A DNA stretch of 64,000 nt from Elusimicrobiota bacterium (GTDB taxonomy: Bacteria > Elusimicrobiota > UBA8919). The position numbers and the translations under genes are program-made. Below, piece after piece: positions 6,001 to 53,871 of the stretch (position 1 is the first letter of the stretch; every line of letters starts with the position of its first letter). The stretch is taken from contig JAQUMH010000003.1 of assembly GCA_028718185.1 (NCBI GenBank), positions 8,961 through 72,960 of the forward strand, read 5' to 3'. Under the pieces are notes generated by a model. The model was given only the letters and a program-made list of their open reading frames with translations. It had not been told where the DNA came from and ran no database searches.

Positions 6001-6377
6001 GAGTCCAGACAGTAGACAAAGTAAACAATACAATCACAGCGACAGTCAAACACTTCTCAACATACCGTATATTGGGTAGTTATGTATCTGTTGACATGAG
6101 TAATGTTAAAGTTTATCCTAACCCATTCAATCCTGACACAGCGGTACTGGGCAAATTGAAGATAATCAATTTACCGATGAACAGCAACATGAAGTTGTAT
6201 ACTGTAGCTGGACGGTTAGTCCGCGAGTTGAAAGAGGTTGACTTTGGCAATCTTGGCTGGCTCGAGTGGGATGGTAAGAATGACGATGGTGACAAAGTAG
6301 CCAGAGGAGTATATATTTATCAGTTAGAAGACGCTGCCGGTAACAAGAAAACCGGTAAAATTGGGCTAGTAAAATAG
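3..6377 (+). CDS. Giant secreted surface protein, 5'-truncated by the window edge. Contains FG-GAP/VCBS repeats, Ig-like domains, an unassigned ~400-aa module, 2 CBM6-like modules, a CHB_HEX_C-like domain, 2 Fn3, a conserved stalk and a FlgD-Ig/T9SS type-A-like C-terminal domain
   Basis: The frame is open from nt 3 to the listed Met at 72. The upstream codons read FNLHSLQIADFNKDGLPDIATSK, itself an FG-GAP-type DxNxDGxxD loop, so the true start lies outside the window. Repeated loops occur through aa ~45-500 (DFDNDGDIDL, DINKDGLLDV, DINNDGRLDV, DIDLDGQIEV, DMDNDGDLDI). CBM6-like 'IQVEDYD...GGYNVGWTKPGEWLEYSVNV' occurs twice. 'YTTNGTDPTSSSTLY' is CHB_HEX_C-like. The C-terminus 'VYPNPFNPDT...WDGKNDDGDKVARGVYIYQL...KIGLVK' is typical of FlgD-Ig/T9SS sorting domains. 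Confidence 0.9.
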   Translation, partial: FNLHSLQIADFNKDGLPDIATSKMHNSIPSGVSGVGDVMVYYQYPKGTFNPANKQVISTMGTHEIQAADFDNDGDIDLFGANWRNIGTIVVDSEGADIKLWRNTMTTKLALNDFTYKQVDNNRERYFCTTAESTGGGSGTKYFGTDAADFTGDGYKDIVSGKYFYKNPGTDMIGTWTRTTFPVNVDGCLAVDVDADGVPEVIAEGLFQSDASHVGGTADPGVYLLKKTGNTDTTADWTATKIIDDTVLGSTLHGNGQGYLVADIVRGGKPEILLEGNAAIYCVEIPNSNYTTPASWITKEIAACNEQGFAVGDINKDGLLDVVVGDYTNLANGIYWCKNPGAGADGHVQPIANWTRNAIGNTQQTGTGVSTRYTTDRIKVADINNDGRLDVVVSNEYYQGGVWPSDVKTFWFEQTAAGGWTQHVICSGQYSSNSMDVADIDLDGQIEVVTGEMGDGANANNGKHVRIWDTTDNGATWTATTAGTAESHCGAMLYDMDNDGDLDILSNTWGPNGTYVGYESYKNYHLWRNNAIGIGGGTPSNLPPTASITVPTSGQNYPVAPASVSITATASDPDDTISKVIISGDATPLTTISGALASYTYTWTGVPAGNHSISVTAYDSYSTPSSPVTRSISVGSVSTSAEPRFKVKETIGSGSFSREDKPVELSINFTSLLANSNIGITGLAFNVDSLRVKEVDGSNNVINPNVPFQFDQATGYNAVTNASGNLTLIMAGNTAANTDRYYEVYFDTNPLVSAVSVPAQVAVTDVANYAGQDSLKIVTVNADYYYHKTGGAFASIIDKNSNDWVSFHHTTGSGAGGEYRGLPNIGPCAHPGYPEMSTTGLGATTTVLVSGPIKTTVKSITTDNNWEWTWDFYPKYATMTLSKKDSTKNYWFLYEGTPGGGDCVNSTDYFYRSNDTTQKNCGSYTNSSSATNLAEDIPNPEWVYFADSTLNRSLYLVNQEDDSYNDNYWSMTAVATNYKMTVWGFGRAASGSGNNTLMTTVPAHLTIGLADSRDKATTANTIESSWRQLGAITQSAPEVTVPGPSNQAPTASITAPSNAASYNLGDTVTINATATDSDGTISKVDFYAGVTLVGTDTTLPYSCTWTPTVAGSYNLTAVATDDGNATGTSSVIAITVNSAGPIQQAYPAGVDWAIGSGTTTIQVEDYDMMTSGKGEGTAYHDTTVGNSSTVYRTSENVDVQACTDTGGGYNVGWTKPGEWLEYSVNVNEGGEYKIILRAAMSGSASPLHLEFGTHNLTPYCITPSVTIPNTGGWQTWTDVTLSTGVTLTAGNQIMKLVMDASAITGCGNLNYISLIKMSADTPNVVATPTISPAAGSYADSVTVTLGCATNAAEIRYTTNGTDPTSSSTLYNSPFTLTASATVRARAFKATMTDSSVNSTVYTITTVSNQQSYGNTPVGTPWQVGAGSTTVQAENYDTVITGSASGETYFDTTAGNTGGAYRTTENVDIQACTDTGGGYSLGYVYPTEWLEYSINVNQSGDYKVIIRAANGQASAGSPIHIEFGPHNATTLLTPAVSVPATGGWQTWTDVVVSTDIALAAGDQIMKLVMNSGAGSAGNFNYITLVRLSADTTPPTISAVTTPSITGSGIVITWTTNELATSKVEYGLTTSYGSETPVTDTDGVYNHSVTLSGLTENTVYHYRMVSVDMNGNPTTTGDYSFTTISNDPNPPVISNVTAGVTQNSAVITWTTDENSDSQIAYGLTTDLVNTTTLDATPTRLHSVLLSALDKGKTYYYKVYSRDSSNNLAISAQYSFKTYNLKHRIYTYYYDDGTTATKTGASATATLKFKVQVYNVDENSIATDYTGTLTLTTKNSNSSVLDAANSTLTLADSGEKEVSIPFRSDINTVELTGDTTAPVVINFNDMYIAKLVGYQGGSIRGANGLKIIIPTGVLSANKYLASIKTSAAPAVQNTIKYVNTKNPICYDFGELTFNNNAPVLQNQVFTRAVNITIPYAAADIGTLNEDGLRIYYWTGTDWDLVSGVQTVDKVNNTITATVKHFSTYRILGSYVSVDMSNVKVYPNPFNPDTAVLGKLKIINLPMNSNMKLYTVAGRLVRELKEVDFGNLGWLEWDGKNDDGDKVARGVYIYQLEDAAGNKKTGKIGLVK

Positions 6378-6637
6378 TGGATTAATGGATTAGAGAATTA
6401 GGGATTAGGTAGTTCAATGTCCAAATTCATAGTTGCAAAGCTCGCTTTACTGAATTAAAATATTGTGGGATTCTTGTCCGCCAAAGTATTAGCAAAAGAA
6501 CTATAGAAGGTGCAGAAATAAATTCTGCACCTTCTATTTTAAAGTAGATTATAACTATCGCACCATTGCGCTATCGCACCACCGCACCGTCTCATTATCG
6601 CACCGTCTCACAGTCGCACTGTTTCATTGGGGGGTAA

Positions 6638-9055: not shown

Positions 9056-9289
9056 TCAATAGTCAGACGACAGAAACAAGATGCAAGATGCAAGATAACA
9101 TCTTACTTCTGACTTCTGACTTCTGACCTCTGACTTCTTGCTTCTTGATTATTAGCCGTTCACAAAACTGAAGGTTAAGAATAGGGGTTGTTGTTGAAGT
9201 CAAGATCAGATTAGGTGAAGCAATCTCATAGTTTTTAAATAGAGATTGCCACGGGCTTGTCGCAAGGAGATTTATTTAAGGAGTTTGTC

Positions 9290-10391: not shown

Positions 10392-10470
10392 GAGTTATTG
10401 GGTTATAGCGTTATAGGGTTGTAGGGTTTAAACTCTATGAACTCTATAACTCTACAAACTCTAAAACTCT
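10392..10470 (+). repeat. Octamer-periodic palindrome of the TATAGRG family, followed by ATCCCACA direct octamers (10471-10530)
   Basis: GTTATAGCGTTATAGGGTTGTAGGGTTT pairs with AAACTCTATGAACTCTATAACTCTACAAACTC. It lies between convergent genes. Confidence 0.75.
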
Positions 10471-10537
10471 ACCATCCCACAATCCCACAATCCCGCTATC
10501 CCACGACCCCACCATTTCACTATCCTATATTTTATAG

Positions 10538-11320
10538 TTAAATTGTTTTTTTACGGAACTGGCCTGGTGGTGTGCCAAAATGGTTTTTGAATATCCTTGA
10601 AAACTGATACTCGTCAATAAATCCAACTTCTTTGGAAATAACTTTTAATGGTAAATCTGTTGTAAAAATCATATTTTTAGCAGTTTCAACACGAAGTATT
10701 CTTAAATCATCCATTGGCGTTAGTCCTGTAAGTTTCTTATATTTTCTTAAAAAATGATTTTTACTCATACCGGCATAACTAGCCAAATCTTCTAATGTCA
10801 AATGTTTTTTCAAATTGTCCGTTATAAAACTTCTTATATCACTAATAATAGGATGTTCTTCTTTAGATTTAGAAATTTCTATTAATTCAGCTAATATTAC
10901 TTCAAAAATTTTCTTTTGTAGTAGACTTCTGTGAAGGGAAAATGGTTGACTTTTTTGATGCACCCACTGGGCTAAAAACCGGATTTTTTGGTTTATGTCA
11001 TGAGTTAAAACAGGTATCTCCAACTTTCCCTTTTCTTTCCATATAAAATAAATAAATTCAGGTGGATTACTACTATCAGGATGTTCGTTGTGATTTACTC
11101 CTTCATGATAAAACAAAATATCACCGGTATTTGCACAAATATTTTTCTTCAATATTTTAACATACATTGAACCATTAAGAATAACTACCATTTCATGATA
11201 TGGATGGTAATGGTTATCTCCTCCCCAGTTAGGGTCTGGATCAGCATGTCCTATATAAAGTAATTTATTAGTTTTATTTATTTTTAAACCAAACTTTTTA
11301 CTATAATGTTCTATTTTCAT
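10538..11320 (-). CDS. AraC-family transcriptional regulator (cupin-like N-terminal domain plus AraC HTH)
   Basis: The C-terminus 'LTLEDLASYAGMSKNHFLRKYKKLTGLTPMDDLRILRVETAKNMI...GFIDEYQFSRIFKNHFGTPPGQFRK' is a canonical AraC/XylS double HTH. The gene is divergent from the giant gene at 11509. Close paralog of 17961..18734. Confidence 0.93.
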   Translation of the reverse strand: MKIEHYSKKFGLKINKTNKLLYIGHADPDPNWGGDNHYHPYHEMVVILNGSMYVKILKKNICANTGDILFYHEGVNHNEHPDSSNPPEFIYFIWKEKGKLEIPVLTHDINQKIRFLAQWVHQKSQPFSLHRSLLQKKIFEVILAELIEISKSKEEHPIISDIRSFITDNLKKHLTLEDLASYAGMSKNHFLRKYKKLTGLTPMDDLRILRVETAKNMIFTTDLPLKVISKEVGFIDEYQFSRIFKNHFGTPPGQFRKKTI

Positions 11321-14500: not shown

Positions 14501-16005
14501 TAAAGTTTTATGCAGGCAGTACTTTGATTGGTACAGACAACGTTTCTCCATATACCATAACATGGACACCGACAGTAGCAGCTAGTTACAATTTAACAAC
14601 AGTAGCAACAGACAATGGTAATGCAACAGGAACATCATCAGTTGTAACTATAACGGTAAGTGCCGATACAACATCACCCGTAATAAGTGGAGTAACACCA
14701 ACTACCATAACCGGTAATGAAGCAGTGATAATCTGGACAACAAATGAGCCATCAGATTCACAGGTAGCATATGGACTAACAACTGCAATGGGGAGCACAA
14801 CCACATTAAATGCGGCACTTTTAACCAACCACAACGTTACCCTTAGCAATTTGAAAAAAGGGAAGACCTATTATTACAGAATTTACAGCCGTGACTCATC
14901 TGGTAACCTCGCAACATCGTCACAGTATAGTTTTAAGACATCTAACAACATAAGGCAAAGCATATATACCTATTACTACGATGATGGAACAACCACAGTA
15001 GCGACCAAGGTAGGTGCATCACCATCTATGAGCTTGAAGTTCAAGTTACAGGTATATAATTTAGATTTAGGTGAGAACATCATAGCAACGGATTACACTG
15101 GCACCATAACACTTAAAACAAAGAACAGCAATGGCGAAGAATTGGATACAGTTGATACGACGTTAATTGAGACAGATGCAGGAGAGAAAGAGGTCAGTGT
15201 CCCGTTCAATAGTAATATAAATACAGTAGAGCTTACAGGTGACGTAACAGCGCCGATATTGATAAAGTTCAGTGATATGTATATAGCAAAGTTAGTGGGC
15301 TACCAGGGTGGTTCAATACGGGGAGCTAACGGATTAAAGATAATAATACCTACAGGTGTCCTGTCCGCGAACAAATATCTTGCCTCAATACGAACGAGTG
15401 CAGTGCCGTCAGCAAATAATACAATGAAATATGTTAACACAGTAAATCCCATATGTTATGATTTTGGCGAGTTAACATTTAATAATAATACTCCAATGCT
15501 GCTAAACCAGAATTTTACAAGAGCAGTTAACATAACAATACCTTATGCATCAGCGGATATAGGTACGTTAAAGGAAGATGGACTTAGAATCTACTATTGG
15601 ACTGGTTCAGATTGGGAGATAGTAACAGGAGTGCAGACAGTAGATAAAACAAACAAAACAGTAACAGCGAAAGTAAACCATTTTTCAACATACCGGATAT
15701 TAGGTAGTTATTTATCTGTTGATTTAAGTAATGTCCGGGTGTATCCGAATCCATATAATTTTACTACAGCAGTTCAAGGTAAATTAAAGGTGATAAATCT
15801 TCCAATAAATAGTATAATGAAACTGTATAGCGTAGATGGTGAATTAGTTAGAGAGCTCAAAGAGCTCGATTATGGTAACCTTGGTCGGATAGAGTGGGAT
15901 GGCAAAGATGGTAATGGTGACAAAGTAGGCAGAGGAGTGTATATCTACCAGGTAGAAGACGCTGCCGGAAAAAAGAAGACAGGGAAGATAGGATTAGTCA
16001 AATAG
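11509..16005 (+). CDS. Giant secreted protein with a glycoside-hydrolase-like N-terminal region (family unassigned), 5 Ig-like domains, a discoidin (F5/8 type C) domain, Fn3, a conserved stalk and a FlgD-Ig/T9SS type-A-like CTD
   Basis: AGGAG RBS and a signal peptide (LLVAGLTLTFSTVVTS). 'NLALGKTATASS...AVDGDMGTRWAS...WIYVDLG...YEFEIYG' is a discoidin/CBM32-type domain. Repeated 'ASITAPxNGxTYxxGxLVTISGxAxDxDGTIxNVKFYAG...SPYxITW' units are Ig-like modules. The last ~360 aa are near-identical to the ends of 3..6377 and 29730..39326. Confidence 0.92.
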   Translation: MIKTFKQVLLVAGLTLTFSTVVTSEPIKLHPDNNRYFIYKGKPTVLITSNEHYGAVLNKDFDYIAYLDELKNKGLNYTLIFTGTYIEPAENIATDTFRWWNIDNNTLGPTNNNFLCPWARSTTQKGFAGDPNSYKFDLSKWDDAGTPANSYFPRLRDFIKQADDRGIAVVIVFFLPFNEASFGKMWERSPMNGGSGIKNGLPGVGNDIDGISNNVNNAGNIAYLTSTGDDSIWDIRDNGLHNDGLTVYMSSMVTKIVQELNEFDNVIYQSIGESWFGGGTRGIEFDNYIISKFVTTEAALPKKHLICQARDIGWAPNFNINPNASLFFYSGPPLNTIVKNYFHNIPIGVDEITYLGIADVSYRCFGWKWIMAGGAVYAVLDLTFTPGPGGGSGLKVLPYYTSRYDYFTNKSLSFTIGGGGPALRTQMGVLKSFMDSFDFVNMHPDNSIITGALPSGTTAWALVQDGKQYAIYIQGNIPSLNVNLQGVTGTYKVEWINTKTGNIDKTETFSHTGGTKVLTPPSYTEDIALRILSNVTPNTAPTVNLQKPTNGQSFTTGSNILIEATASDDGAVTKVDFYNGSNFLGTDNSSPYNYTWNSVSKGNYTISVVATDNGSPALTGTAQVSIVVTDSGNASPTASITAPSNGATYKIGDLVTISGTAYDSDGTITNVKIYAGSSLIGIINVSPYTITWSTTAAANYSLTAVATDDKGATGTSPAVTITVTPEGKINLALGKTATASSVETGWGNDNASYAVDGDMGTRWASQYPYSDTEWIYVDLGATYNITEVILKWEAAYGANYQIQVSDNHTDWTTIATKTGGTGGTDDIIPSISGSGRYVRMNGIARGPYGYSLYEFEIYGTLVGGNRPPTTSITAPTNGATYNTGTLVTISGTANDTDGTISNVKFYAGTTLLGTDTSSPYSITWTPTVASSYNLTAVATDNGNATGTSSVVTITVTNPANASPTASITAPTNGTTYNTGDLVTISGSANDSDGTIANVKFYAGSTLIGTDNVSPYTITWTPTVAASYNLTTVATDNGNATGTSSVVTITVSADTTSPVISGVTPTTITGNEAVIIWTTNEPSDSQVAYGLTTAMGSTTTLNAALLTNHNVTLSNLKKGKTYYYRIYSRDSSGNLATSSQYSFKTSNNIRQSIYTYYYDDGTTTVATKVGASPSMSLKFKLQVYNLDLGENIIATDYTGTITLKTKNSNGEELDTVDTTLIETDAGEKEVSVPFNSNINTVELTGDVTAPILIKFSDMYIAKLVGYQGGSIRGANGLKIIIPTGVLSANKYLASIRTSAVPSANNTMKYVNTVNPICYDFGELTFNNNTPMLLNQNFTRAVNITIPYASADIGTLKEDGLRIYYWTGSDWEIVTGVQTVDKTNKTVTAKVNHFSTYRILGSYLSVDLSNVRVYPNPYNFTTAVQGKLKVINLPINSIMKLYSVDGELVRELKELDYGNLGRIEWDGKDGNGDKVGRGVYIYQVEDAAGKKKTGKIGLVK

Positions 16006-16119
16006 TCCTTGGTCAAAAGTTCAATGTCAGATAAAGATTAATATTGAGATTAAGATTAAGAACATAAGAGCATAAGAACATGGGGACGTAAGAACATTAT
16101 ATTAAATGGAGGATGGATT

Positions 16120-17960: not shown

Positions 17961-18734
17961 TTAAAGGTAAGATGCCTTTTTACGGAACTGGCCTGGAGGT
18001 GTTCCAAAATGATTTCTAAATATTCTTGAAAGGTGATGTTCGTTAGCAAAACCTACTCCCTTAGAAATTGTTTTTAATGACAAATCTGTTGAAAATATCA
18101 TATCTTTGGCAGTTTCAACACGAATTATTCTTAAATCATCCATCGGTGTTTGTCCCGTAAGTTTTTTATATTTTTTTAAAAAATGATATTTACTCATACC
18201 GGCATGCTTAGCTAAATTTTCTAATGTCAAGTGTTCCTTTAAGTGTTCTTTCATAAAACTTCTTACCTTATCAATAATAGTATGCGGTTCTTTGGATTTA
18301 GAATTTTTTATTAACTCAGCTAATATAACTTCAAATATTTTACCTTGCAATATGCTCTTGTAAGGAGAACTTGTTTTTCTTTCTTCATATGCCCATTTAG
18401 CTAAAAGACGTATTCTTTTACTTATATCGTGGGTTAAAATAGGAACCTCAAGCTTTCGTTTTTCTTTCCATGCAAAAACAATAATTTCAGCAGGAGTAGT
18501 GCTGGTAAGGCGTTCTCTGTGATTTAATCCTGCAGGATAAAGCAGGACATCACCGGGGCTTGCATGAATATCTTTTTTTGATATTTTAACACATATTGAG
18601 CCCTTAATAAGAACTACCATTTCATGGAATGGATGATAATGTTTTTGTATTTTACGGTCAGGGTATGGATCAATACACCCTACATAAATTAATTTATTGG
18701 TTTTTTTTTCTTTCAAACTGTAATCTAGTTTCAT
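17961..18734 (-). CDS. AraC-family transcriptional regulator, paralog of 10538..11320
   Basis: Collinear with 10538..11320 over the whole length, with the same cupin-like 'HYHPFHEMVV' core and AraC HTH tail 'GFANEHHLSRIFRNHFGTPPGQFRKK'. Confidence 0.93.
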   Translation of the reverse strand: MKLDYSLKEKKTNKLIYVGCIDPYPDRKIQKHYHPFHEMVVLIKGSICVKISKKDIHASPGDVLLYPAGLNHRERLTSTTPAEIIVFAWKEKRKLEVPILTHDISKRIRLLAKWAYEERKTSSPYKSILQGKIFEVILAELIKNSKSKEPHTIIDKVRSFMKEHLKEHLTLENLAKHAGMSKYHFLKKYKKLTGQTPMDDLRIIRVETAKDMIFSTDLSLKTISKGVGFANEHHLSRIFRNHFGTPPGQFRKKASYL

Positions 18735-18815: not shown

Positions 18816-18844
18816 TTGAAAATATCAAAAGTATGTTATATAAT
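18816..18844 (+). promoter_or_regulatory. Candidate promoter for the AraC gene 18880..19776
   Basis: TTGAAA (18816-18821), a 17-nt spacer, then TATAAT (18839-18844). It shares the CAAAAGTATGTTATA block with the candidate promoters at 19781 and 28036. Confidence 0.4.
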
Positions 18845-18879: not shown

Positions 18880-19776
18880 ATGAATAAAAATTCGCCTGTA
18901 AATGATAATGATTGGTATCCTGTTCCATTTTCAGTAAAAGATTTTCCTTTTGCAATAGCCACTACAGTTGATCTTGCTGTGCGTAGTAAGTATTATCATT
19001 TTCATCCCTTTGCTATGGAGTTTCAATATATCCGTTCCGGTAAAGGTTTTTACTTTATTAACGATAAATCAAATACTTTTAAAGATAAATCAATATTTAT
19101 TATTCATGGGCGGGATATTCATACCTATATAAAAGGAAAAAATCCTTCTCGGGTAAATAAGACCACTCTATATTTTAAAAAATCCTTTTTTAAGGATTCT
19201 CTTTCACATCAGCCTTTTATAAAAAGTATTTTCGATTGTAATAAAAACTTCCCGCATCAGATATGTTTTAGTGAAAAAGAAGCAGACGATATAGAGTTAA
19301 TTTTACATATGCTTGAGAAAGAGTGGGAAAGGAAGGGAGAGAATTTCCGTGAGGTAATAAAATCTTTACTTACAACGTTTTTAGTGCTAATAAAAAGAAG
19401 TATGTCTAACAAGGAAAAAAATATCAGTTCTCTTAAAGAACATAATCCGATAATTGACGAAGTATTAGATTATATAGACAAACACTTCAAAGAACACATA
19501 ACGCTTCCTGATTTATCAAAGCAAGTGGGATATTCTTCTTATCATATAAGCCGGTTGTTTAAAAAATTTACCGGATTAAGTTTTAGGGAATTAGTAGATA
19601 ATAAAAGAGTAATAGAGGCAAAGCGTATTTTGGAAACAGACAATAGTAAGAAAGTTATTTCTATTGCATATGAAGTAGGTTTTTCAGATTTGAGCGCTTT
19701 TAATCGCAATTTTAAGCGTCTTACCAGCACAATCCCCTCTCTATACCGCAAGATTTGCGCACCCATTAACAAATAA
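18880..19776 (+). CDS. AraC-family transcriptional regulator (third, more divergent copy)
   Basis: The C-terminal 'ITLPDLSKQVGYSSYHISRLFKKFTGLSFRELVDNKRVIEAKRIL...GFSDLSAFNRNFKRL' is an AraC HTH. Confidence 0.9.
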   Translation: MNKNSPVNDNDWYPVPFSVKDFPFAIATTVDLAVRSKYYHFHPFAMEFQYIRSGKGFYFINDKSNTFKDKSIFIIHGRDIHTYIKGKNPSRVNKTTLYFKKSFFKDSLSHQPFIKSIFDCNKNFPHQICFSEKEADDIELILHMLEKEWERKGENFREVIKSLLTTFLVLIKRSMSNKEKNISSLKEHNPIIDEVLDYIDKHFKEHITLPDLSKQVGYSSYHISRLFKKFTGLSFRELVDNKRVIEAKRILETDNSKKVISIAYEVGFSDLSAFNRNFKRLTSTIPSLYRKICAPINK

Positions 19777-20323
19777 ATCCAAGACAAAAAATCAAAAGTG
19801 TGTTATAAGTATAGTAACAAGATAGTCCGAAGTCCTTGCTTGCCAACGACTTCTTGCCCGCCAAAGATTCAGTGGAGGGCGAAGTTCAATGTCCTATATC
19901 GTAGTCGCACCGTCTTACGGTGCCAATGAATCAATTGATAATTTCATTACACAATAGACACAAGAGAAGCTAAAAGCAAAATATTCTATGTTGTTTACCC
20001 CGCATACTGCGGGGTCATGTGCTCATCCGGTGCAGTTGCTCCGGATTCCGCGCATAGAATCCGAAAAGGCTGCTCCCGCGAAAGCGGGATGAGTTCGCAA
20101 AACCAAGGGCTAAGATAGATAACGCCAACAGGTTGCCGATAAGAGACAAATAAAGACAACGAACCACAAGCGGGTTACGCTCTTGTGGCGAGACCCAAAC
20201 TATCAAGCCAGCAAGGTTATCGAAAACAGAAGAAGTAGATTAGTGAATTAGTAGATTAGCGAATTAGGTTGAAAAAACTTAATTAACTGATATCTAGTTA
20301 ACTATAAGCTTCTTTTTTTATTC
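19748..20323 (+). ncRNA. Conserved structured leader/unknown RNA element, copy A, upstream of 20389..23577
   Basis: About 575 nt collinear with 28003..28580. Candidate promoter: AAGACA 19781-19786, 17 nt, TATAAG 19804-19809. An 82-nt near-identical core lies at 20061-20142. The hairpin CCCGC-GAAA-GCGGG here corresponds to CCCGA-GAAA-TCGGG in copy B, a compensatory pair change. No convincing ORF is present. Confidence 0.6.
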
Positions 20324-20388
20324 ACGGGATAGTTCTGAATTCTGAATCCTGTTTGCTGAATACTGAATTCTGTTACCCGGACAATTTT

Positions 20389-23300
20389 ATGACTAAACCT
20401 ATTAAATTATTTTTATTATTAACATTGTTGGTATTAACAAGCATGATAACTGCAAAGACATTATCTGCGGTATTGAGTTTCAAAAGGGGAGTTATACATC
20501 TCTGGAATGATATGTCTCAACTAAGCTCCAGCCTTGATAATGCGGCATACTATGGTGCAGATGCCTTACAAACCGGAATAATTCCTACCTATATATCCGG
20601 TGTTAAAGGTGGGAAACATGATTATATAGGTGACGGCATCACTTATGCACATACAAAAGGTATAAAAATATTTCTTTTGATGGACATGAGCAATTATGCC
20701 GATGCCGATTGGGAAGCCTTTAAAAACAATACTTCTATACAGGGCCAATTTCTTTCAGACATGGATTGGATATTGCAAAGATATCCTACACTTGACGGTA
20801 TAGAATTAGAAGAGCCGCACGCTCATATTATACAGACTGATGGTGGTGCCTCATGGCGTATATTTACAAACGATTTTTTTACTAAGTGCAAAAATATTAT
20901 TTCCAAATATAGACCTACTGACCAGCCTGAAACCTTTTTATGGTCGTTTAATTGTGCCAGCAATTCTAAGGAAGGTGTTTGGGCGAATGGAATTGATACA
21001 GCCTATATCAATACGAACAAATTATTCAACGCATATGGAATTCAAAATGCCGCCACTACTCTTAACGATTACATGTACAATATTACAATATGGCAGTCAA
21101 GGTTTCCAAATCTTGAAATTTTTTCGGGTACACTTTTGACATGGTCAGGCCTTATTGACGGTTGTGCGTCCCAGTATCCAAGTTGGGACAGTCCAAAATG
21201 CTGGAGTCCGGCATTCTTTGACCAACTTAAATGGGCTAATTCTGTCGATCATTCTGTGCAGATATTTACATTACCTAGATTGGCTGAGTCCGCCTCAATG
21301 TGGCCGAACGACACTACACCGGGCACAACAGCCGGTGATAAAGTAATATATATATGGGGCGGCGTTCAGCAGGCATATCCTGCAGGAATTCCTTGGGTAA
21401 TATCATCCGACACAATTACCCCGACAACAATACAAGTGGAGGACTTTGATATGATGACCGCTGGCTTGGGTCAAGGAGAAGCATACAAAGATACAGAATC
21501 CGCTAATCAAGGTGGTGTATACAGGACAGCAGATGGAGTAGACATAGAAACTTTCCCGGGAGGATACGATATCGGCTGGACAAAACCCGGAGAATGGCTT
21601 GAATACAGCATAAACGTCCAGCAAAGTGGAGAATATAACATATCATTAAAAGTAGCAGGCGGTGCAGGTGTTCATGGACCCGTGCATCTTGAATTTGGAC
21701 CGCATCATGGCACACCATATGTCGTTACTAATTCAACCGCCATATATAATACTGGTGGATGGTATTCATGGACAACATTCACATTCACAGGTGTATCGCT
21801 TACTAGCGGCATACAGGTTATGAAATTAGTAATGGATAATGGAACGGCATCTGACTGTGGCAATTTTGACAACATAAGTATAGTAAAGATATTAGATGCG
21901 CTACCGCCGTCATCAGTAGGCAATTTGACAACCGGTAATCTGACAGGTGGAACAATAGTGTTAAATTGGACCTCAGTAGGAGACAACGGTAATAGTGGAA
22001 CAGCAAGTGTATACGATATCCGATATTCCAATGTAAGTATAAATGAAAATAATTGGGGAAGTGCGACACAATGTAATGATGAGCCAACCCCTTTAGTATC
22101 AGGAACTACACAGAGTTATACTGTGCAAGGATTAAGTCCAAATACAAATTATTATTTTGCTATGAAGGTAGGCGATGAAGTGCCTAACTGGTCAGGGATA
22201 TTAAATAGTCCTACTGGTAAAACGAATGCTAACACAGCACCGGTCTTAATTTGGACAGGTGAGTTAGGATATACCGGTGATGGATTAAATCCCGATACAG
22301 GAATAATAACTACAAGTTATGTATATAGAGTGAAATATTTCGATATAGATGATAACGCGCCGAAAGCGGGGTATCCTAAAATACACATCAAGAAAGGCGG
22401 AGTCGAGATAGCAGGCAGTCCGTTTGTAATGACTACAACAGACACAAGTTCATATAGTAGTGGTCGCATATATAGTTATACAAAACAACTGGCAGAGACA
22501 GATAAAGATTATAGTTATTATTTTGAAGCAAAAGATATAAATGATGGAATAGCGACAGGTTTACCTACAGCAACAATAGATGCACCGGATGTAAATGTAA
22601 TAACATACGGCATCAAAGGCAATGTGCAAGTATATAAGAGCAGTAGCGGGATAAGCGGAGTAACAATGAATTTAAGTGGTAAATCAAACAGCGATTTGAC
22701 TACCGGAGAAGAAGGCAGTTATGAGTTTGTTGGGTTGGAGAGTGGGAATTATATTATAAAACCTGTAAGTTCTAATTGGCGATTCTGGCCCAATGAGATG
22801 TCCTACACAAACTTAAGCAATGATATGGTGGAACAGAATTATGTTTGCAAGCCGTTAAGTGTGACAAAGATAGTGAGTCCGCAGATACAGATATCAAGCG
22901 GGATGGCAGTAACGCCAATAAGTGAGAATAGCAGTGTGGATAGCGAGATAAGTGTTACGGTACCGATAGGTGCGTTTTCTACTACGGCTAATTTAACGTT
23001 GAAAGCGATAGAAGTACCTGTGAGTGATAGGCGTACAATGAAGGTAGTTGGTTATGGAATAGAAATGGTAAATGACAAGAACCTGCAGCCAAAAGAAATG
23101 CTGATAACGATAAGTTATGATGACAGTTCAATAGCTGGTTATAATGAGAGTAAGTTAGTAGTAGGCTGGTATGATGAAAATAACAAGAGGTGGGAAGCAT
23201 TACCGTCAACAGTATACTCAAGTTATAATAAGGTGATAGCCAAAAGTAATCATTTAAGTAAGTTTGCGTTGCTGGAATCAATACCGATAACTGATTTTAG

Positions 23301-23577
23301 CAATATAAAAATCTATCCTAATCCATATAATCCGGATACAGCGGTAAGTGGTAAATTGAAGATAATCAATTTACCAATGAATAGTATAGCGAAATTATAT
23401 AGTGTGACAGGTGAGATAGTGAGAGAACTAAAAGAGATAGATTTTGGTAACCTTGGCTGGCTCGAGTGGGATGGTAAAAATGACGATGGTGACAAAGTCG
23501 GTAAAGCAGTTTATATTTATCAAATAGAAGACGGTACTGGTAAGAAAAAGACTGGAAAAATAGGATTAATTAAATAA
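20389..23577 (+). CDS. Secreted multidomain protein with a hydrolase-like N-terminal region, CBM6-like module, Fn3, carboxypeptidase-regulatory-like domain and FlgD-Ig/T9SS type-A-like CTD
   Basis: The ORF track starts at TTG 20353. The in-frame ATG at 20389 gives a typical signal peptide (MTKPIKLFLLLTLLVLTSMITA). 'IQVEDFDMMTAG...GYDIGWTKPGEWLEYSINV' is CBM6-like. 'GIKGNVQVY...GVTMNLSG...TTGEEGSYEFVGLESGNYII' is CarboxypepD_reg-like. The C-terminus is 'IYPNPYNPDT...WDGKNDDGDKVGKAVYIYQI'. Confidence 0.9.
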   Translation: MTKPIKLFLLLTLLVLTSMITAKTLSAVLSFKRGVIHLWNDMSQLSSSLDNAAYYGADALQTGIIPTYISGVKGGKHDYIGDGITYAHTKGIKIFLLMDMSNYADADWEAFKNNTSIQGQFLSDMDWILQRYPTLDGIELEEPHAHIIQTDGGASWRIFTNDFFTKCKNIISKYRPTDQPETFLWSFNCASNSKEGVWANGIDTAYINTNKLFNAYGIQNAATTLNDYMYNITIWQSRFPNLEIFSGTLLTWSGLIDGCASQYPSWDSPKCWSPAFFDQLKWANSVDHSVQIFTLPRLAESASMWPNDTTPGTTAGDKVIYIWGGVQQAYPAGIPWVISSDTITPTTIQVEDFDMMTAGLGQGEAYKDTESANQGGVYRTADGVDIETFPGGYDIGWTKPGEWLEYSINVQQSGEYNISLKVAGGAGVHGPVHLEFGPHHGTPYVVTNSTAIYNTGGWYSWTTFTFTGVSLTSGIQVMKLVMDNGTASDCGNFDNISIVKILDALPPSSVGNLTTGNLTGGTIVLNWTSVGDNGNSGTASVYDIRYSNVSINENNWGSATQCNDEPTPLVSGTTQSYTVQGLSPNTNYYFAMKVGDEVPNWSGILNSPTGKTNANTAPVLIWTGELGYTGDGLNPDTGIITTSYVYRVKYFDIDDNAPKAGYPKIHIKKGGVEIAGSPFVMTTTDTSSYSSGRIYSYTKQLAETDKDYSYYFEAKDINDGIATGLPTATIDAPDVNVITYGIKGNVQVYKSSSGISGVTMNLSGKSNSDLTTGEEGSYEFVGLESGNYIIKPVSSNWRFWPNEMSYTNLSNDMVEQNYVCKPLSVTKIVSPQIQISSGMAVTPISENSSVDSEISVTVPIGAFSTTANLTLKAIEVPVSDRRTMKVVGYGIEMVNDKNLQPKEMLITISYDDSSIAGYNESKLVVGWYDENNKRWEALPSTVYSSYNKVIAKSNHLSKFALLESIPITDFSNIKIYPNPYNPDTAVSGKLKIINLPMNSIAKLYSVTGEIVRELKEIDFGNLGWLEWDGKNDDGDKVGKAVYIYQIEDGTGKKKTGKIGLIK

Positions 23578-23665
23578 GTATGATTAATAAAATAAAAGAG
23601 TGTTATAGAGTTATTGGGTTATAGCGTTTGTAGAGTAAAAATTCTAAGAGAGGAGGAAATGGAAT

Positions 23666-25093
23666 ATGTACAGTGTTAATGTAAGACAGCCGGTGCTTAA
23701 TTTTTTAGATTCAAAAGAGCTTGACGGAATTCACTATGCCAGTTTGGAACTATTGGAGAGGACCGGATTAAAGATTCATAATAGAGAGTGTTGCGACCTT
23801 CTTTATAATGCCGGTGCCTATGTTGAAAATAACCAGCTTGTAAGAATTCCATCTGCATTAGTAAAAAGATGTTTGTCTACTGCTCCGGAAAAAGTAACCC
23901 TGGCTAGCCGGAAAGGCGATAGGGTTATGTTTCTTGAAGACAATAGGGTTTATTTCGGTACCGGTTCAGATTTGGAATTCACTCTTGACAATAAAACTAA
24001 AGAACACCGTATGACAAAATTAGAAGATGTTAAAGATGCTTCAATAGTAAGTGATTATCTGGAAAATATAGATTTTATAATGTCCTATGGTTTAGCTAAT
24101 GATGTTGATCCTAAAGAACAGGATATTCATCAATTTCTAACCATGGTTAAGAATACTACTAAGCCGTTAATCTTAACTTCACTTTCAGGGAAAGAGAATT
24201 TGGAAAAGATTTATAAGATATCATGTGCGATTACCGGTGGCGAAGATAAGTTCAAACACAATCCCTTTTGGATAATGTATGGACAATTTGTTTCACCGTT
24301 TCAACATAACGAAGACGCTCTTGAACGGTTAATTTTTTGCGCTGATAGGCATATTCCAATTATATATGTACCTACAGTTATGAGTGGGGCATCAGGACCG
24401 GTAACAATGGCTGGTTCTTTGGCTCTTGGAAATGCGGAAGTTTTAGGCGGTTTAGTTATTCACCAACTGCGGTCCCCGGGAGCACCTTTTATATACGGGG
24501 GTTGTATAACTCCTTTTGATATGCGGACAAGCAACATACCTTACGGAGCTCCTGAATGGCATATGGGTAGTGCAATAATGGCTCAGCTTTCCCGCCGTTA
24601 TAATCTGCCTATTTTCGGAACAGGAGGATGCTCAGATTCAAAATTGATAGATGAGCAAGCGGTGTCTGAGGCTACTTCTTCACTTCTTTTAGAGGCGCTT
24701 TCAGGTCTAAATTTAATACATGATGTAGGTTATCTTGAATCAGGTCTTTGCGGTTCTCTTGATTTTTTGGTTATTTGTAATGAGGTAATTGCTATGACTA
24801 AGAGAATCTTAAAAAACTTTCAAATAAATTCGGATACTTTAGCTATTGATTTAATAAATGAAGTGGGTCCGGGCGGACACTTTATGGATAAAGACCACAC
24901 GTTAAAACATTTTAAAGACGGGATATGGTATCCGGAATTATTTGACCGGAATAAGCGTCAACAGTGGTCAAATGAAGGGTCAACAACTATGTGTGATAGA
25001 GCACATCTTAAATTAAATAAAATACTAAGTGAACATAAAGTAGAATCGCTAGATTCAGCCGTAGAAAAAGAGATAAACAAAATAATCAAATAG
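23666..25093 (+). CDS. Trimethylamine methyltransferase (MttB) superfamily protein, non-pyrrolysine type
   Basis: GAGGAGG RBS. The N-terminus 'LDGIHYASLELLERTGLKIHNRECCDLLYNAGAYVENNQLVRIPSALVKRCLSTAPEKV' and overall length match MttB-family proteins. The frame is uninterrupted with no in-frame TAG. Confidence 0.85.
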   Translation: MYSVNVRQPVLNFLDSKELDGIHYASLELLERTGLKIHNRECCDLLYNAGAYVENNQLVRIPSALVKRCLSTAPEKVTLASRKGDRVMFLEDNRVYFGTGSDLEFTLDNKTKEHRMTKLEDVKDASIVSDYLENIDFIMSYGLANDVDPKEQDIHQFLTMVKNTTKPLILTSLSGKENLEKIYKISCAITGGEDKFKHNPFWIMYGQFVSPFQHNEDALERLIFCADRHIPIIYVPTVMSGASGPVTMAGSLALGNAEVLGGLVIHQLRSPGAPFIYGGCITPFDMRTSNIPYGAPEWHMGSAIMAQLSRRYNLPIFGTGGCSDSKLIDEQAVSEATSSLLLEALSGLNLIHDVGYLESGLCGSLDFLVICNEVIAMTKRILKNFQINSDTLAIDLINEVGPGGHFMDKDHTLKHFKDGIWYPELFDRNKRQQWSNEGSTTMCDRAHLKLNKILSEHKVESLDSAVEKEINKIIK

Positions 25094-25240
25094 ATGGTAT
25101 AATATTAAAGATTGAGATTTATAGAGGCGTCCGAGGTCCTTAGTCCAAAGTCCGATGTCAAGAACATAATGAAAAAACAGTTAACTATCGCACTATCGCA
25201 CCATCGCACTATCACACTGTTCCATTGGGGGGGTATTTAA

Positions 25241-27844: not shown

Positions 27845-28002
27845 TCCGTAGTCCGGTGTAGTCGCGGTGCTGATGTTGTGTGGTGATGAGTTTTTTGTCC
27901 GCTAAAGTAATAGTACTTAGTTAAACACTAAGCCCCGACAGCATTAAATAAAAGTTAAAGAAGTGTTCTTGCGGAAATGCCACGGTGGAGTATTATTGAA
28001 CA

Positions 28003-28580
28003 GCAAAATTTGCCTACCTATTGACAAGTAAATCCAAGACAAAAACCCAAAAGTATGTTATATATATAGTAAAGAGCAAGTAATGATTACCCATTAGCAA
28101 GTCATGAGTATTCAATAATAAAACATTATACATTTGAATAAGGAGCTAAAAGAAATACATGTTGTTTTACCCCGCTTAATGCGGGATTGTGTTCCCACGA
28201 TTAACATCGGGGTTATGTTCTCGTTCGGTCCAGTAGGTCCGAACTCCGAGCATTAACTCGCTCGGTCCAGTGGGTCCGAGCTCCGAGCACTAACCCGAAA
28301 AGGCTGCTCCCGAGAAATCGGGATGAGTTCGCAAAACCAAGGGCTAAGATAGTGAAAGCCAACAGGTTGCCGATAAACGACAATTAAGTAAAAATAGGTT
28401 CTTCGTAAAGTAAAGGTAAAGGTAGAGAGATAAGACAATTACGAAGACCAAACTATCAAGCTAGCTAGGTTACCGAAAATAAAGAAGTTAATTAGAGAAT
28501 TAGTTGATTAGTAAATTAGGTTGAATAAACTTAATTCGCTAAATTAACCAACTAAATATCTATTGAACTTCTTTTTATTT
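28003..28580 (+). ncRNA. Conserved structured leader/unknown RNA element, copy B, upstream of the PorV-like gene
   Basis: Collinear with 19748..20323. Candidate promoter: AAGACA 28036-28041, 17 nt, TATATA 28059-28064. The core lies at 28295-28376. A variable hairpin (TTCTTCGTAA...TTACGAAGA) sits where copy A has CCACAAG...CTTGTGG. A long AATTAG-octamer hairpin lies at ~28480-28575. Confidence 0.6.
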
Positions 28581-28682
28581 TGGTAGTTTCATGACACATC
28601 ACACATCACACATTACACAATTTTAAGGAAAGTTTTTATGAAAAACGTAATAGACGAAATTAAGAAGAACAAGGGGGTTAAT

Positions 28683-29630
28683 ATGCGCAAGATGTTAAGT
28701 GCAGTAACGTTAGCAGTAATGGTTGTATGTACTATATGTACAAGTAATGTACAAGCCGGTGTCGGCAGTTCAGCAATGCAGTTTTTAAAGGTAGGAGTAG
28801 GCGCCAAGCAGGAAGGTATGGGTGGCGCACAGGTAGCAGTAGCAGAAGATGTAAATAGCGTATACTGGAATCCTGCGGGATTAGGTTCAGTAAGTGCAAC
28901 GGAATTATCATTTATGCATTTATCATATTTTGAAGGAATAAGTTACGAATATTTAGCGATAGGCCATCCAGTAAATGAGAGTTCCACAATAGGCCTGCAA
29001 GTAATGTACCTTAATTATGGCAATATAGACAAAACATTAGAAGATGTCAATGGCGCATATGATACGGTAGGCAGCGTAGGTACTTTTGGTGCAAAAGATA
29101 TAGGTGGCGCGATAAGTTATGGCAAACAGGTAGATGAAACAATAAATGTAGGTGGCAGTTTAAAGATGGCGAGCCAGAAGATAGACACAGACAACACATC
29201 CGGATTTGGGATAGATTTAGGAGTAGAGTATGTTCCTGTAAAAGGCGGATTACAATTAGGCTTAGCAGTCCAGAACATAGGCAGTAAAGTAGGCAGTGAT
29301 AATTTACCCGGGAATATAAAAGCTGGATTAGGCAAGAAGCTCTCAGCATTTGAAGGTGAGAACAATTTGACGGTAGCAGCAGATGTCAATTATGGATTAG
29401 ACAGTGCGACAACAAGAGAGAACATAGGTTTAGAGTTAGTGATAGCCGAGATGATAGGAATCCGAGCAGGTTACAAGATAGGTTATGATGAAGAGACATA
29501 CACATTAGGCGGCGGTTTTAAGATAGCCGGCGAAAGTTCAACATTTAATATAGATTATGCATTTGTCCCGACAAAAGATTTAGGCGACACACACAGGATA
29601 TCGTTAGGAATAAGGTTTGGAAATAAATAA
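28683..29630 (+). CDS. PorV/PorQ-family-like outer-membrane beta-barrel protein
   Basis: The ORF track starts at 28638. The ATG at 28683 follows AAGGGGG and gives signal peptide MRKMLSAVTLAVMVVCTICTSNVQA. 'SSAMQFLKVGVGAKQEGMGGAQVAVAEDVNSVYWNPAGLG' is the N-terminal signature I associate with PorV-type barrels. The remainder has alternating beta-strand character. Confidence 0.8.
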   Translation: MRKMLSAVTLAVMVVCTICTSNVQAGVGSSAMQFLKVGVGAKQEGMGGAQVAVAEDVNSVYWNPAGLGSVSATELSFMHLSYFEGISYEYLAIGHPVNESSTIGLQVMYLNYGNIDKTLEDVNGAYDTVGSVGTFGAKDIGGAISYGKQVDETINVGGSLKMASQKIDTDNTSGFGIDLGVEYVPVKGGLQLGLAVQNIGSKVGSDNLPGNIKAGLGKKLSAFEGENNLTVAADVNYGLDSATTRENIGLELVIAEMIGIRAGYKIGYDEETYTLGGGFKIAGESSTFNIDYAFVPTKDLGDTHRISLGIRFGNK

Positions 29631-29710
29631 TAGAAATTAGAAATATATAGAAATTAATAGAAATAAAACAACAAATTTCAACAAATTTCAATAAGTTTCA
29701 ATAAATTTCA
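29631..29710 (+). repeat. Octamer-periodic palindrome (AGAAATTA and TAATTTCA-type units) between the PorV-like gene and the 3198-aa gene
   Basis: TAGAAATTAGAAATATATAGAAATTAATAGAAAT ... ATTTCAACAAATTTCAATAAGTTTCAATAAATTTCA. Confidence 0.7.
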
Positions 29711-39326: not shown

Positions 39327-39333
39327 GAGAATT

Positions 39334-39420
39334 GTTATAGAGTTAATAAGGTTATGGGGTTATAGAGTTATAGGGTTTTAGGGTTTAAACTCTAAAACTC
39401 TATAAACGCTATAACTCTAC
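39334..39420 (+). repeat. Octamer-periodic palindrome (TTATAGAG/TTATAGGG/TTTTAGGG units and their complement) just after the stop of the 3198-aa gene
   Basis: The left arm GGTTATAGAGTTATAGGGTTTTAGGGTTT pairs with the right arm AAACTCTAAAACTCTATAAACGCTATAACTC. Mismatches are G-T, which is wobble-compatible in + strand RNA. Confidence 0.8.
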
Positions 39421-40858: not shown

Positions 40859-40887
40859 TTGACAAAACGTGAAAAATACTTTATAAA
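40859..40887 (+). promoter_or_regulatory. Sigma70-type promoter driving the riboswitch-led operon
   Basis: TTGACA (40859-40864), an exactly 17-nt spacer, then TATAAA (40882-40887). The aptamer begins ~10 nt downstream. Confidence 0.6.
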
Positions 40888-40896
40888 TATAGTGTA

Positions 40897-40977
40897 AGCG
40901 ATAAAGGCAAATGCCGATTAAAATCGGCAGACGCAAAGCCATAATCCCGCGTCGGGCGGGATGCCGGGTTACCGAAA
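40897..40977 (+). promoter_or_regulatory. c-di-GMP-I (GEMM-I) riboswitch aptamer
   Basis: The sequence is AAGGCAAA-[TGCCGAT TAAA ATCGGCA]-GACGCAAAGCC-ATAA-[TCCCGC GTCG GCGGGA]-TGCCGGGTTACCGAAA. The GGCAAA, GACGCAAAGCC and GGGUUACCGA blocks and the two hairpins match the GEMM-I consensus as in Vc2. Confidence 0.85.
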
Positions 40978-41056: not shown

Positions 41057-41090
41057 CCGAGTTTCGGTATCCCCGTTAGCTCGGTTTTTT
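41057..41090 (+). terminator. Candidate intrinsic terminator/expression platform of the riboswitch
   Basis: CCGAG (41057-41061) ... CTCGG (41080-41084) is followed by TTTTTT (41085-41090). The loop segment CGGTATCCCCG can alternatively pair with the aptamer 3' strand CGGGTTACCG. The stem is short, so this is moderate at best. Confidence 0.45.
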
Positions 41091-41122
41091 GTTGTAAAGG
41101 TAATTAAGCAATAGAGGCAGCT

Positions 41123-44742: not shown

Positions 44743-44754
44743 GAGAGTAGAGCT

Positions 44755-44857
44755 CTTAGCGTTATAGAGTTTTAGAGTTCGTAGGGTTTTAGAGTTTATT
44801 GATTCAAATTCTTAACCCTAAAACCCTAAAACCCTATAACTCTATAACCCTATAACA
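44755..44857 (+). repeat. Octamer-periodic palindrome of the TATAGRG family, after the FliG-like gene
   Basis: The left arm is GTTATAGAGTTTTAGAGTTCGTAGGGTTTTAGAGTTTA and the right arm is TTAACCCTAAAACCCTAAAACCCTATAACTCTATAACCCTATAAC. Confidence 0.75.
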
Positions 44858-48367: not shown

Positions 48368-48485
48368 GATTATGTAATAATTGTAGTAGCACGCCCTTGG
48401 CGTGCGTCGTTATGGTAAGGCAATGCATTTTCAGCATGTTATATAAAACCTCAGAAATTACCAGATTGCGACCCTGACAGCATAT

Positions 48486-50849: not shown

Positions 50850-51043
50850 GGAGAAATAGGTTGTATCATAACTTAAATTGTAGTTGCAGAGCGTTATCTC
50901 TGCTGAAACTTGACTTCCGTGAGAATGGCATATTCATCCCCTCAACTCTTTCTTCTCCCCATAGGGGAGAAGATGAAACCTGCCTACCGGCAGGCAGGGA
51001 TGAGGGGGATCATAAGATTCTTAGCTGATAGGTCTGAAAATTT

Positions 51044-52315: not shown

Positions 52316-52493
52316 CGATACGGAACTAGTCGTAGTTGTAGTCGCAGAGCTTGCTCTGCTGCTGTTGTCTCTTCGGCGGGCGATTAAAAGATTCAAAGAT
52401 TAAGGTTTAGGATTCATAGAACCGTAGAGTCGTAAATCCCTAAGACGCAAAGACCCTACGACTCTATGACCCTATGACGTCATTGGAGTTATT

Positions 52494-53453: not shown

Positions 53454-53464
53454 CCAAGACATCT

Positions 53465-53625
53465 AGTTTAATGTCTATGAATTTCAATATTTATGCGGCT
53501 ACAATATCAATTGGTTTGTAGCTGCCCGCCAACGGTTCAGTGGCGGGCCTAACTTAATGTACAGGAATTTCAATGTTTGTAGTAGTCGTAGATTCTTGGC
53601 GTGTTTATCATCGTAGTGAAGGGTC
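53465..53625 (+). repeat. Short version of the composite linker and hairpin array seen at 57395-57810
   Basis: TGAATTTCAATA, TTTGTAGCTGCCCGCCAACGGTTCAGTGGCGGGCCTAACTTAATGTACAGGAATTTCAATGTTTGTAGTAGTCG. It has the same CCGCCAACGGTTCAGTGGCGG hairpin as at 57622. Confidence 0.7.
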
Positions 53626-53871
53626 TCGGTTGTTGGTGTACATAAATTACAGTTTTTTTGCGAACGGGCATGGATATCCTCTTCATTTTGAGGAAAATTC
53701 TTCGGGGGAAGAATATTGTTTATGTCTTAAGCTGCAAAGAACTTGAAAAACAGTACATGTCATCATAGGTATCTTATTCTCAAATAAGTGCCAGTTTTAC
53801 GAGACCCTTCACAGATCCAAAGTTTTTTTCCGAACGAACCTGCCTGACGGTAGGTAGGAGTGAGGTAAGTT

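Follow-up and report, generated by a model that had tools for sequence, protein, structure and literature searches.

Predicted c-di-GMP-I riboswitch leaders with a split P2 helix in two surface-protein operons of an Elusimicrobiota bacterium

A 64,000-nucleotide (nt) stretch of an Elusimicrobiota metagenome-assembled genome (MAG; contig JAQUMH010000003.1), hereafter the window, carries two collinear copies of a non-coding leader on the plus strand, copy A at 19745-20332 and copy B at 28000-28586. Behind copy A lie genes for CBM6/Fn3/SdrD-like and Big_7 surface proteins, and behind copy B a gene for a PorV/PorQ-like barrel and one for a 3198-amino-acid (aa) FG-GAP/CBM/LamG protein. A promoter, hairpins, a core and a long terminal hairpin are common to both leaders. 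Here we examine them as candidate riboswitches of class I for cyclic dimeric GMP (c-di-GMP-I, or GEMM-I).

Results

Conservation of the duplicated leader

Comparison of the two copies by blastn returned three blocks: the promoter region (19745-19826 and 28000-28081, 80% identity), a short segment (19988-20025 and 28159-28197) and a long block (20028-20284 and 28263-28536) whose E value of 6e-42 led us to reject chance similarity. Between the blocks the DNA could be aligned neither by blastn nor in a MAFFT alignment. The outcome is a mosaic in which 77 of 82 positions are identical in the core (20061-20142 and 28295-28376) and all 19 in a strand within the leaders that we call Y1, with unalignable spacers between. 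An open reading frame (ORF) conserved between A and B was looked for in both leaders and not found; a leader peptide was rejected, since the frame that starts at the ATG after a conserved AGCUAAAAG box runs for 34 codons in A and only 6 in B. The blastn blocks and the absence of a conserved ORF bear out a first-pass annotation of this DNA, made from the letters alone, which had described two collinear non-coding segments with an 82-nt near-identical core. Its proposal of a structured functional leader RNA agrees with our own judgement: a structured leader that acts in cis, does not code for protein and is under selection. Saturated spacers beside a 94% identical core and structure-preserving changes argue for selection on the RNA fold and on ligand-contact positions.

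The duplication reaches into coding DNA. Copy A overlaps, over its opening ~30 nt, the final 12 codons of an AraC-family gene (18880-19776), and copy B begins with a 12-codon remnant of the same gene end (28000-28035), so the ancestral duplicated unit ran from the end of the regulator gene through the leader. We rejected a mobile-element end as the source of the similarity, the sole such trace being an insertion in copy A that resembles a repetitive extragenic palindromic (REP) element. The structural claims made below rest on these two paralogous copies and a canonical neighbour.

Both cores match the c-di-GMP-I family

We scanned a 901-nt region for each copy, and the whole 64-kb window, against 4227 Rfam families. 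The first-pass annotation, which could match the RNA to no known family, had suggested such a scan; it gives one, with the c-di-GMP-I riboswitch (RF01051) the best and only relevant match for both cores. Copy A matches at 20058-20140 (30.4 bits; E 7.6e-4 in the 901-nt scan and 0.054 in the 64-kb scan) and copy B at 28292-28374 (25.9 bits; E 9e-3 and 0.65), both scores lying below the RF01051 gathering score of 35 bits. For both cores, lower-scoring matches to related families of this clan were suppressed. With the residue numbering of Vc2, the Vibrio cholerae member of RF01051, set by hand against the literature, the aptamers divide as follows.

20058-20118, plus strand: copy A aptamer 5' part; G20 = 20068, P1b with GAAA loop 20074-20089, C44 = 20096, A47 = 20099
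20101-20118, plus strand: copy A P2 5' strand X, which holds the receptor half CUAAG
28292-28352, plus strand: copy B aptamer 5' part; G20 = 28302, P1b with GAAA loop 28308-28323, C44 = 28330, A47 = 28333
28335-28352, plus strand: copy B P2 5' strand X, from the Rfam c-di-GMP-I alignment

G20, C44, A47 and the GAAA tetraloop are kept in both copies, as are the G21-C46 and C22-G45 pairs, and in both aptamers the junction reads CGCAAA and G20 and A47 occupy their expected places. P1b carries its GNRA tetraloop as UCCCGC-GAAA-GCGGGA in A and UCCCGA-GAAA-UCGGGA in B; the C-G to A-U double change that had already been noticed here is a true compensatory pair in the sequence of both copies. Recognition of the ligand's two guanines falls to G20 and C92 (PMC6140456), and C92 is present in the proximal 3' strand, Y1, of both copies (20136 and 28370) and in the distal 3' strand, Y2, of copy B (28473). 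Two tertiary contacts complete the known fold, GAAA/receptor and the C44-G83 pair, and a G83C change abolishes binding in Vc2 (PMC11705072). G83 is found in the distal strand only (20211 and 28464), the proximal mimic having an A. A candidate tetraloop receptor in P2 has its 5' half CUAAG in both copies and, when paired with Y2, would form a loop C-UAA-G / C-AA-G with the 3' half CAA against the consensus UAU, flanked by GGC/GCC(U) and GAUAG/CUAUC. Both copies stand in cis, upstream of adhesin-like CBM6/Fn3 genes and the PorV/PorQ-like barrel.

We consider it probable that copies A and B are diverged c-di-GMP-I riboswitch leaders of surface-protein operons, predicted to respond to a ligand that we infer to be c-di-GMP. 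The RNA is a known class in an unusual split form, in a new lineage and gene context.

P2 is split around a conserved mimic of its 3' strand

Flanking strands able to close a long-range helix around an insert were part of the earlier annotation. The helix exists, in the minimum free energy (MFE) fold of both copies, and joins AACCAAGGGCUAAGAUAG (X) with CUAUCAAGCC/U-AGC-A/U-AGGUU (z -4.1 in A, -3.7 in B); the earlier reading was incomplete in that the helix corresponds to P2 of c-di-GMP-I. The insert, which differs in sequence yet had been described as a hairpin in both copies, is predicted as one in both folds.

20200-20228, plus strand: copy A distal 3' strand Y2, CUAUC-AA-GCC-AG-C-AA-GGUU-A-U-CG-AAAA; G83 = 20211, U92 = 20220; pairs with X in the MFE fold
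28453-28481, plus strand: copy B distal 3' strand Y2, CUAUC-AA-GCU-AG-C-UA-GGUU-A-C-CG-AAAA; G83 = 28464, C92 = 28473
20124-20142, plus strand: copy A proximal mimic Y1, GCC-AA-C-A-GGUU-G-CC-GAUAA; AA at the G83 site and no helix above the receptor
28358-28376, plus strand: copy B proximal mimic Y1, identical to that of copy A
20164-20188, plus strand: copy A variable insert hairpin, CCACAAG...CUUGUGG, within the 81-nt P2 insertion 20119-20199
28399-28447, plus strand: copy B variable insert hairpin, UUCUUCGUAA...UUACGAAGA, within the 100-nt P2 insertion 28353-28452

Y2, whose GGUU is followed by AUCGAAAA in A and ACCGAAAA in B, reproduces the consensus 3' half GccAGCnnGGUUaCCGAA, AG bulge included. 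By hand mapping it has the length of Vc2 G79-C93 and the same AG bulge, which sits three pairs below the UAA/AA receptor-like loop; a 5-bp apical helix and a (U/C)CGAAAA tail complete the strand. These features went unused by the Rfam model and so lend independent support to the family assignment. The model paired X with Y1 (GCC-AA-C-A-GGUU-GCCGAUAA) in 4+1+3 bp with a 13-nt loop and an A for G83, because it cannot span the 81/100-nt P2 insertion and aligned the proximal mimic. Deleting the insert to give X+Y2 chimeras yields the two-hairpin GEMM shape at -29.2 kcal/mol in A (z -4.6) and -26.2 kcal/mol in B (z -3.0); the versions with Y1 reach -24.0 and -23.3 kcal/mol (z -2.2). Since Y1 is identical at 19 of 19 positions amid an insertion that is otherwise unrelated between the copies, it must be under selection; the simplest role for it is that of a second strand with which X can pair.

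The same conservation could be taken to mean that the compact X:Y1 aptamer is the real sensor and that Y2 is an anti-aptamer strand which invades P2 when ligand is absent. In both copies Y1 carries C92 within a canonical UGCCGA, while position 92 varies in Y2; it is transcribed before Y2, and a forced X:Y1 fold lies merely ~2.7 kcal/mol above X:Y2 in context. However, with AA for AG it offers no G83, the residue whose change to C abolishes binding in Vc2 (PMC11705072), and its 13-nt loop leaves no helix above the receptor. A mere invader, moreover, needs no 2-nt bulge, Vc2 spacing or receptor-like loop, and Y2 has all three. We therefore regard a compact sensor as unlikely and retain X:Y2 as the preferred binding fold.

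A repeat-built terminal hairpin and a second pairing for the Y2 tail

Both leaders end, as had been described, in an AATTAG-octamer hairpin; we find a hairpin of ~85 nt built on AAUUAG repeats and followed by a U-run, which we call T. A consensus terminator scan missed it because its stem is long and AU-rich.

20228-20319, plus strand: copy A hairpin T (20228-20312) and U7 (20313-20319); AAUUAG-repeat, candidate intrinsic terminator
28481-28581, plus strand: copy B hairpin T (28481-28571) and U-run U5-A-U4 (28572-28581); z -6.2
20328-20332, plus strand: copy A post-terminator partner GAUAG, which pairs with the Y2 tail UUAUC (20217-20221) in the single-sequence fold
28582-28586, plus strand: copy B post-terminator partner GGUAG, which pairs with the Y2 tail UUACC (28470-28474)

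The Y2 tail UUA-N92-C can thus pair with G-R-UAG 3' of the U-run, N92/R being U/A in A and C/G in B. RNAalifold places this tail helix at columns 9/120, where the change from U-A in A to C-G in B is the one compensatory pair of the consensus, and single-sequence folds that contain the helix have z scores of -3.1 (A) and -6.2 (B). This pairing extends the hairpin to T-ext, whose foot is in competition with the base of P2 and with position 92. When the post-terminator partner is included, the full-length MFE structure is X:Y1 with T-ext; without it, the structure is X:Y2.

A canonical element elsewhere in the window

A bona fide c-di-GMP-I element lies 12 kb downstream at 40896-40976 (44.7 bits) and is the only other such match in the window. 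Downstream of it comes a gene for a TPR/UPF0164 barrel (41123-42787) akin to the PorV-like gene of copy B, and then a FliG-like+TPR gene at 42784-44742.

40859-40887: promoter of the canonical element, TTGACA-N17-TATAAA
~41064-41097: terminator of the canonical element, CCGAG...CUCGG-U6

With A and B the element shares its promoter style (a -10 followed by TATAGT), the switching tail GGUUACCGAAA and a PorV/UPF0164-like barrel gene downstream; unlike them, it has a compact P2 with neither insertion nor mimic, and a P1b loop that is not GNRA. Its tail UUACCGAAAUUAG can alternatively pair with CUAAU..UUUCGGUA in the 5' arm and the loop of the element's terminator, which is short and GC-rich; this implies the textbook OFF logic. 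The partner of the tail thus lies inside the terminator in the canonical element, whereas in A and B it lies 3' of the U-run.

Evidence against a ligand-driven switch, and other explanations

Several observations weigh against a c-di-GMP-responsive strand exchange in A and B. With both cores under the gathering score, a default Rfam scan lists only the element at 40896-40976. Position 92 of Y2 in copy A is U (20220), a change that in Vc2 weakens the response and does not abolish it (10.1101/617340). The P1 internal loop of the family, GGC-AAA...GAC-GC, is replaced in both copies by GGC-UGCU...AUGAGUU-C-GC, and RNAfold prefers a shifted P1 register, GCU/AGU. In the ensemble of the leader 3' part, X:Y1 has a probability of 0.02-0.08. 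An RNAduplex comparison of all upstream RNA with both arms of T returned no antiterminator conserved in A and B, and constrained folds keep T in every modelled state. Because repeat-built hairpins are common in the intergenic regions here, T may also play a generic part in RNA processing or stability. Finally, the covariation evidence is thin, with one or few events per claim, because there are only two paralogous copies and no further ones were retrieved.

The rebuilt P1 loop and the U92 of copy A, together with the sub-threshold scores, raise the question of whether a GEMM-I-type fold here serves another ligand, such as another cyclic dinucleotide. Natural GEMM-I variants exist, among them G20A forms that sense 3'3'-cyclic GMP-AMP (3'3'-cGAMP; PMC6140456). 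However, the set G20, A47 and C92, the last found in Y1 of each copy and in Y2 of B, is the one that goes with c-di-GMP, related families of the clan scored lower, and the same locus holds a canonical c-di-GMP-I element as well as PilZ and GGDEF-like genes; we think a different ligand highly improbable.

The properties of T and of the 5' region bear on a further explanation, that the leaders are decaying or ligand-independent relics of a duplication that carried the AraC end, a promoter and a riboswitch, and that any remaining regulation comes from proteins or RNases acting on the UAG/AAUUAG hairpin and not from a ligand. The duplication does include 12 codons of the AraC gene end, copy A tolerates a REP-like insertion, and T is a generic repeat-type hairpin whose folding showed no ligand dependence in our models. 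Decay is hard to reconcile, however, with a core that stays 94% identical between saturated spacers and changes in ways that preserve its structure, which points to selection on fold and contacts, and we judge it very unlikely. A diverged c-di-GMP-I leader remains the reading we prefer.

Promoters, spacer and upstream hairpins

19781-19809, plus strand: copy A candidate promoter, AAGACA (19781-19786)-N17-TATAAG (19804-19809); extended -10, TG at 19801-19802
28036-28064, plus strand: copy B candidate promoter, AAGACA (28036-28041)-N17-TATATA (28059-28064); extended -10
19845-19935, plus strand: REP-like insertion in copy A only, dispersed hairpin elements TTGCCCGCCAA..GGGCG and GTAGTCGC-ACCG..CGGT-GC; absent from B
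19997-20015, plus strand: copy A hairpin H1, ACCCCGC-AUACU-GCGGGGU; conserved box AGCUAAAAG on its 5' side at 19968-19976
28171-28185, plus strand: copy B hairpin H1, CCCGC-UUAAU-GCGGG; box AGCUAAAAG at 28144-28152
20025-20046, plus strand: copy A hairpin H2, AUCCGG-U-GC-AGUU-GC-U-CCGGAU; directly 5' of the aptamer
28223-28281, plus strand: copy B hairpin H2 as a tandem duplicate, H2a 28223-28244 and H2b 28260-28281; a 37-nt unit twice

The similar promoters that the first-pass annotation had picked out were read again at these positions, and the sequence of both has an extended -10 'TGT'. A promoter-like module, CAAAAGTRTGTTATA, also stands upstream of the AraC gene that begins at 18880 (~18826-18844). 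The ~90-nt REP-like insertion of copy A shows the 5' spacer to be tolerant of change; elements of this insertion recur at 53520-53620 and 57440-57790, and the GTAGTNGC-hairpin-TG family to which such elements belong has 6 matches against 0.14 expected. By blastn, H1 and the AGCUAAAAG box are kept in both copies. Across the three copies of H2 (A, B-a and B-b) all 8 pairs are kept (100% paired) and 4 have changed on both sides; within the 64-kb window the motif occurs at these three sites only.

Searches for further copies

The exact 21-mer of the core is absent from 185,579 species genomes. A degenerate form of it gave only two chance matches in JGI metagenomes, both in coding DNA, and two scans of viral contigs gave one chance match. 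Relatives of the PorV-like protein downstream of copy B at 83-94% identity are all paralogues from the same MAG (MDD5687362-MDD5688551), which holds at least 15 PorV/PorQ paralogues in this range. Among PorV-like loci found by protein search at <=37% identity, the best 15 (~128 kb) were without an Rfam match, and a JGI contig with a 90%-identical PorV-like paralogue has no riboswitch in the 154 nt upstream. Logan contigs of SRR22315506 contain identical AraC and MttB genes and are broken inside the leader.

Neighbouring genes and intergenic repeats

Further genes of the window code for PilZ+TPR, response-regulator-GGDEF-like, histidine-kinase-like ATPase, FliG-like+TPR and PorP/SprF+LysM proteins. 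Parts of c-di-GMP signalling are seen in a response-regulator-GGDEF gene at 55066-55998 and a PilZ+TPR gene at 57816-59702; the former probably encodes no active cyclase, because its signature motif is degenerate (GGDNF).

Four large surface-protein genes end in a common domain of ~286 nt, 74-79% identical (6093-6378, 15721-16006, 23293-23578 and 39042-39327), and large CBM6/Big_7 blocks are duplicated among them. In the 3198-aa protein the shared C-terminal domain gives a weak match to the CHU_C type IX secretion signal. Three AraC-family genes lie by giant surface-protein genes (10538-11320 and 17961-18734, minus strand; 18880-19776, plus strand). Two of the three are 81% identical in DNA over 300 nt, and the promoter module of the third-listed gene (~18816-18844) resembles the leader promoters. 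Between adhesin-like genes, oddly, stands an uninterrupted MttB-family methyltransferase gene (23666-25093), within which 24629-24728 matches the Rfam family PYLIS_3, the mttB pyrrolysine insertion element (35.0 bits, gathering score 38); the match probably reflects coding-sequence homology.

Tandem arrays of 7-8-nt repeats (among them GTTATAGG, AAACTCTA, AACCCTAT, TATCGCAC, TTCTGAA and CATCACA) occupy many intergenic regions: 9077-9145, 10394-10512, 16029-16097, 20333-20374, 23602-23628, 25166-25234, 28590-28619, 29625-29710, 39334-39419, 44748-44856, 52420-52486 and 54934-55035. Neighbouring arrays are often complementary, G-U pairs allowed, and would form long RNA hairpins just upstream of ribosome-binding sites. 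One composite element, GTTATAGG/AAACTCTA, is seen in both orientations, and the terminal hairpins of the leaders are of this repeat-built type. REP-like elements of the form GTAGTNGC-GC-rich hairpin-CTG follow many stop codons, all on the plus strand (27858-27885, 48385-48415, 50880-50905, 52338-52367, 56088-56115, 63134-63158 and 63224-63250). Two long intergenic regions, 53448-53876 and 57280-57820, contain tandem units of a REP-like hairpin with the motif TGTAYAGGAATTTCAATG, and one unit (57729-57752) has the hairpin UCCCGCGAAAGCGGGA, identical to P1b of copy A.

Discussion

In outline the leaders resemble Vc2: two adjacent helices with GAAA on P1b, a CGCAAA junction with A47, G20 5' of P1, C44, a bulged A-G(83) in P2, the CUAAG receptor half and a 3' GGUUaCCGAA tail with C92, in the 5' leader of surface or behaviour genes. 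They depart from the RF01051 family in a P1 loop of UGCU/AUGAGUU where the family has AAA/GAC, in a P2 5' strand one nt shorter, in a P2 apex replaced by an 81/100-nt insertion with a conserved mimic of the 3' strand, in the U92 of copy A's Y2, and in the distance of ~250-280 nt between the predicted transcription start and the aptamer.

We envision a scenario in which transcription starts at the extended -10 promoter and proceeds through the variable spacer, H1 and H2 into the aptamer. X:Y2 would be the ligand-binding fold, with a full GEMM-I P2, the bulged G83 directed to C44, a receptor-like loop and the 5-bp apical helix, and Y1 would act as an internal competitor that holds X in the absence of ligand. 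A second switch point would lie at the foot of T, where the Y2 tail (UUA-N92-C and its A-rich run) could pair with G-R-UAG and the U-run, making the binding pocket and the base of the extended hairpin mutually exclusive. The apo state would then combine X:Y1 with the tail in T-ext, and the holo state X:Y2 bound to c-di-GMP with the tail withdrawn. Bound ligand might in this way alter the strength of T, a weak-footed, A-tract-assisted terminator, or the fate of the read-through RNA, affecting the CBM6/Fn3 adhesin-like genes behind copy A and the genes for the PorV/PorQ-like barrel and the 3198-aa protein behind copy B. A c-di-GMP-dependent strand exchange that controls read-through into the adhesin and PorV-like operons is likely. 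The sequences themselves show a match to the family in sequence and structure, the alternative pairings, and conservation from A to B; Y2 as the strand of the binding fold, the step that is regulated and its sign are matters that we infer; on the last we lean slightly towards ON at high c-di-GMP because the cargo is adhesin-like. Only tentatively do we suggest that the arrangement is a new expression platform for a cyclic-dinucleotide riboswitch, in which P2 is split by an insert of 80-100 nt with a conserved mimic strand that cannot support binding; X would park on Y1, the Y2 tail would park at the terminator foot, and c-di-GMP would drive a three-way exchange. An RNA-binding protein or RNase III may also recognise the UAG-containing octamer hairpin T.

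Parts of this scenario have precedents. Bc1 of the Bacillus cereus group (PMC11218506) likewise joins a class I aptamer to a long multi-state expression platform, with a dual terminator of which one appears to form regardless of ligand. Its two terminators are short and conventional and its aptamer uninterrupted, whereas in A and B the aptamer is split and a single long hairpin, built of repeats, follows. Small RNAs (sRNAs) that contain Vc2 (10.1101/617340) also place the aptamer far downstream of the promoter and, as proposed for A and B, ligand alters RNA fate in them without an obvious terminator/antiterminator pair. In those sRNAs the aptamer is the 3' end of a stabilised RNA, whereas in A and B a long hairpin and U-run follow it.

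A literature search found no paper in which a c-di-GMP-I riboswitch is connected with Elusimicrobia or with type IX secretion. The leaders extend c-di-GMP-I riboswitches to an Elusimicrobiota lineage and, as predicted riboswitches, directly connect c-di-GMP with PorV/PorQ barrels of the type-IX-like kind and with giant surface proteins that bind glycans. They also indicate that the Rfam threshold misses aptamers with an interrupted P2, so that other 'orphan' structured leaders may be split forms of known riboswitches. If the mimic does compete for X, these leaders would offer a compact, testable case of an alternative state built from a riboswitch's own duplicated sequence.

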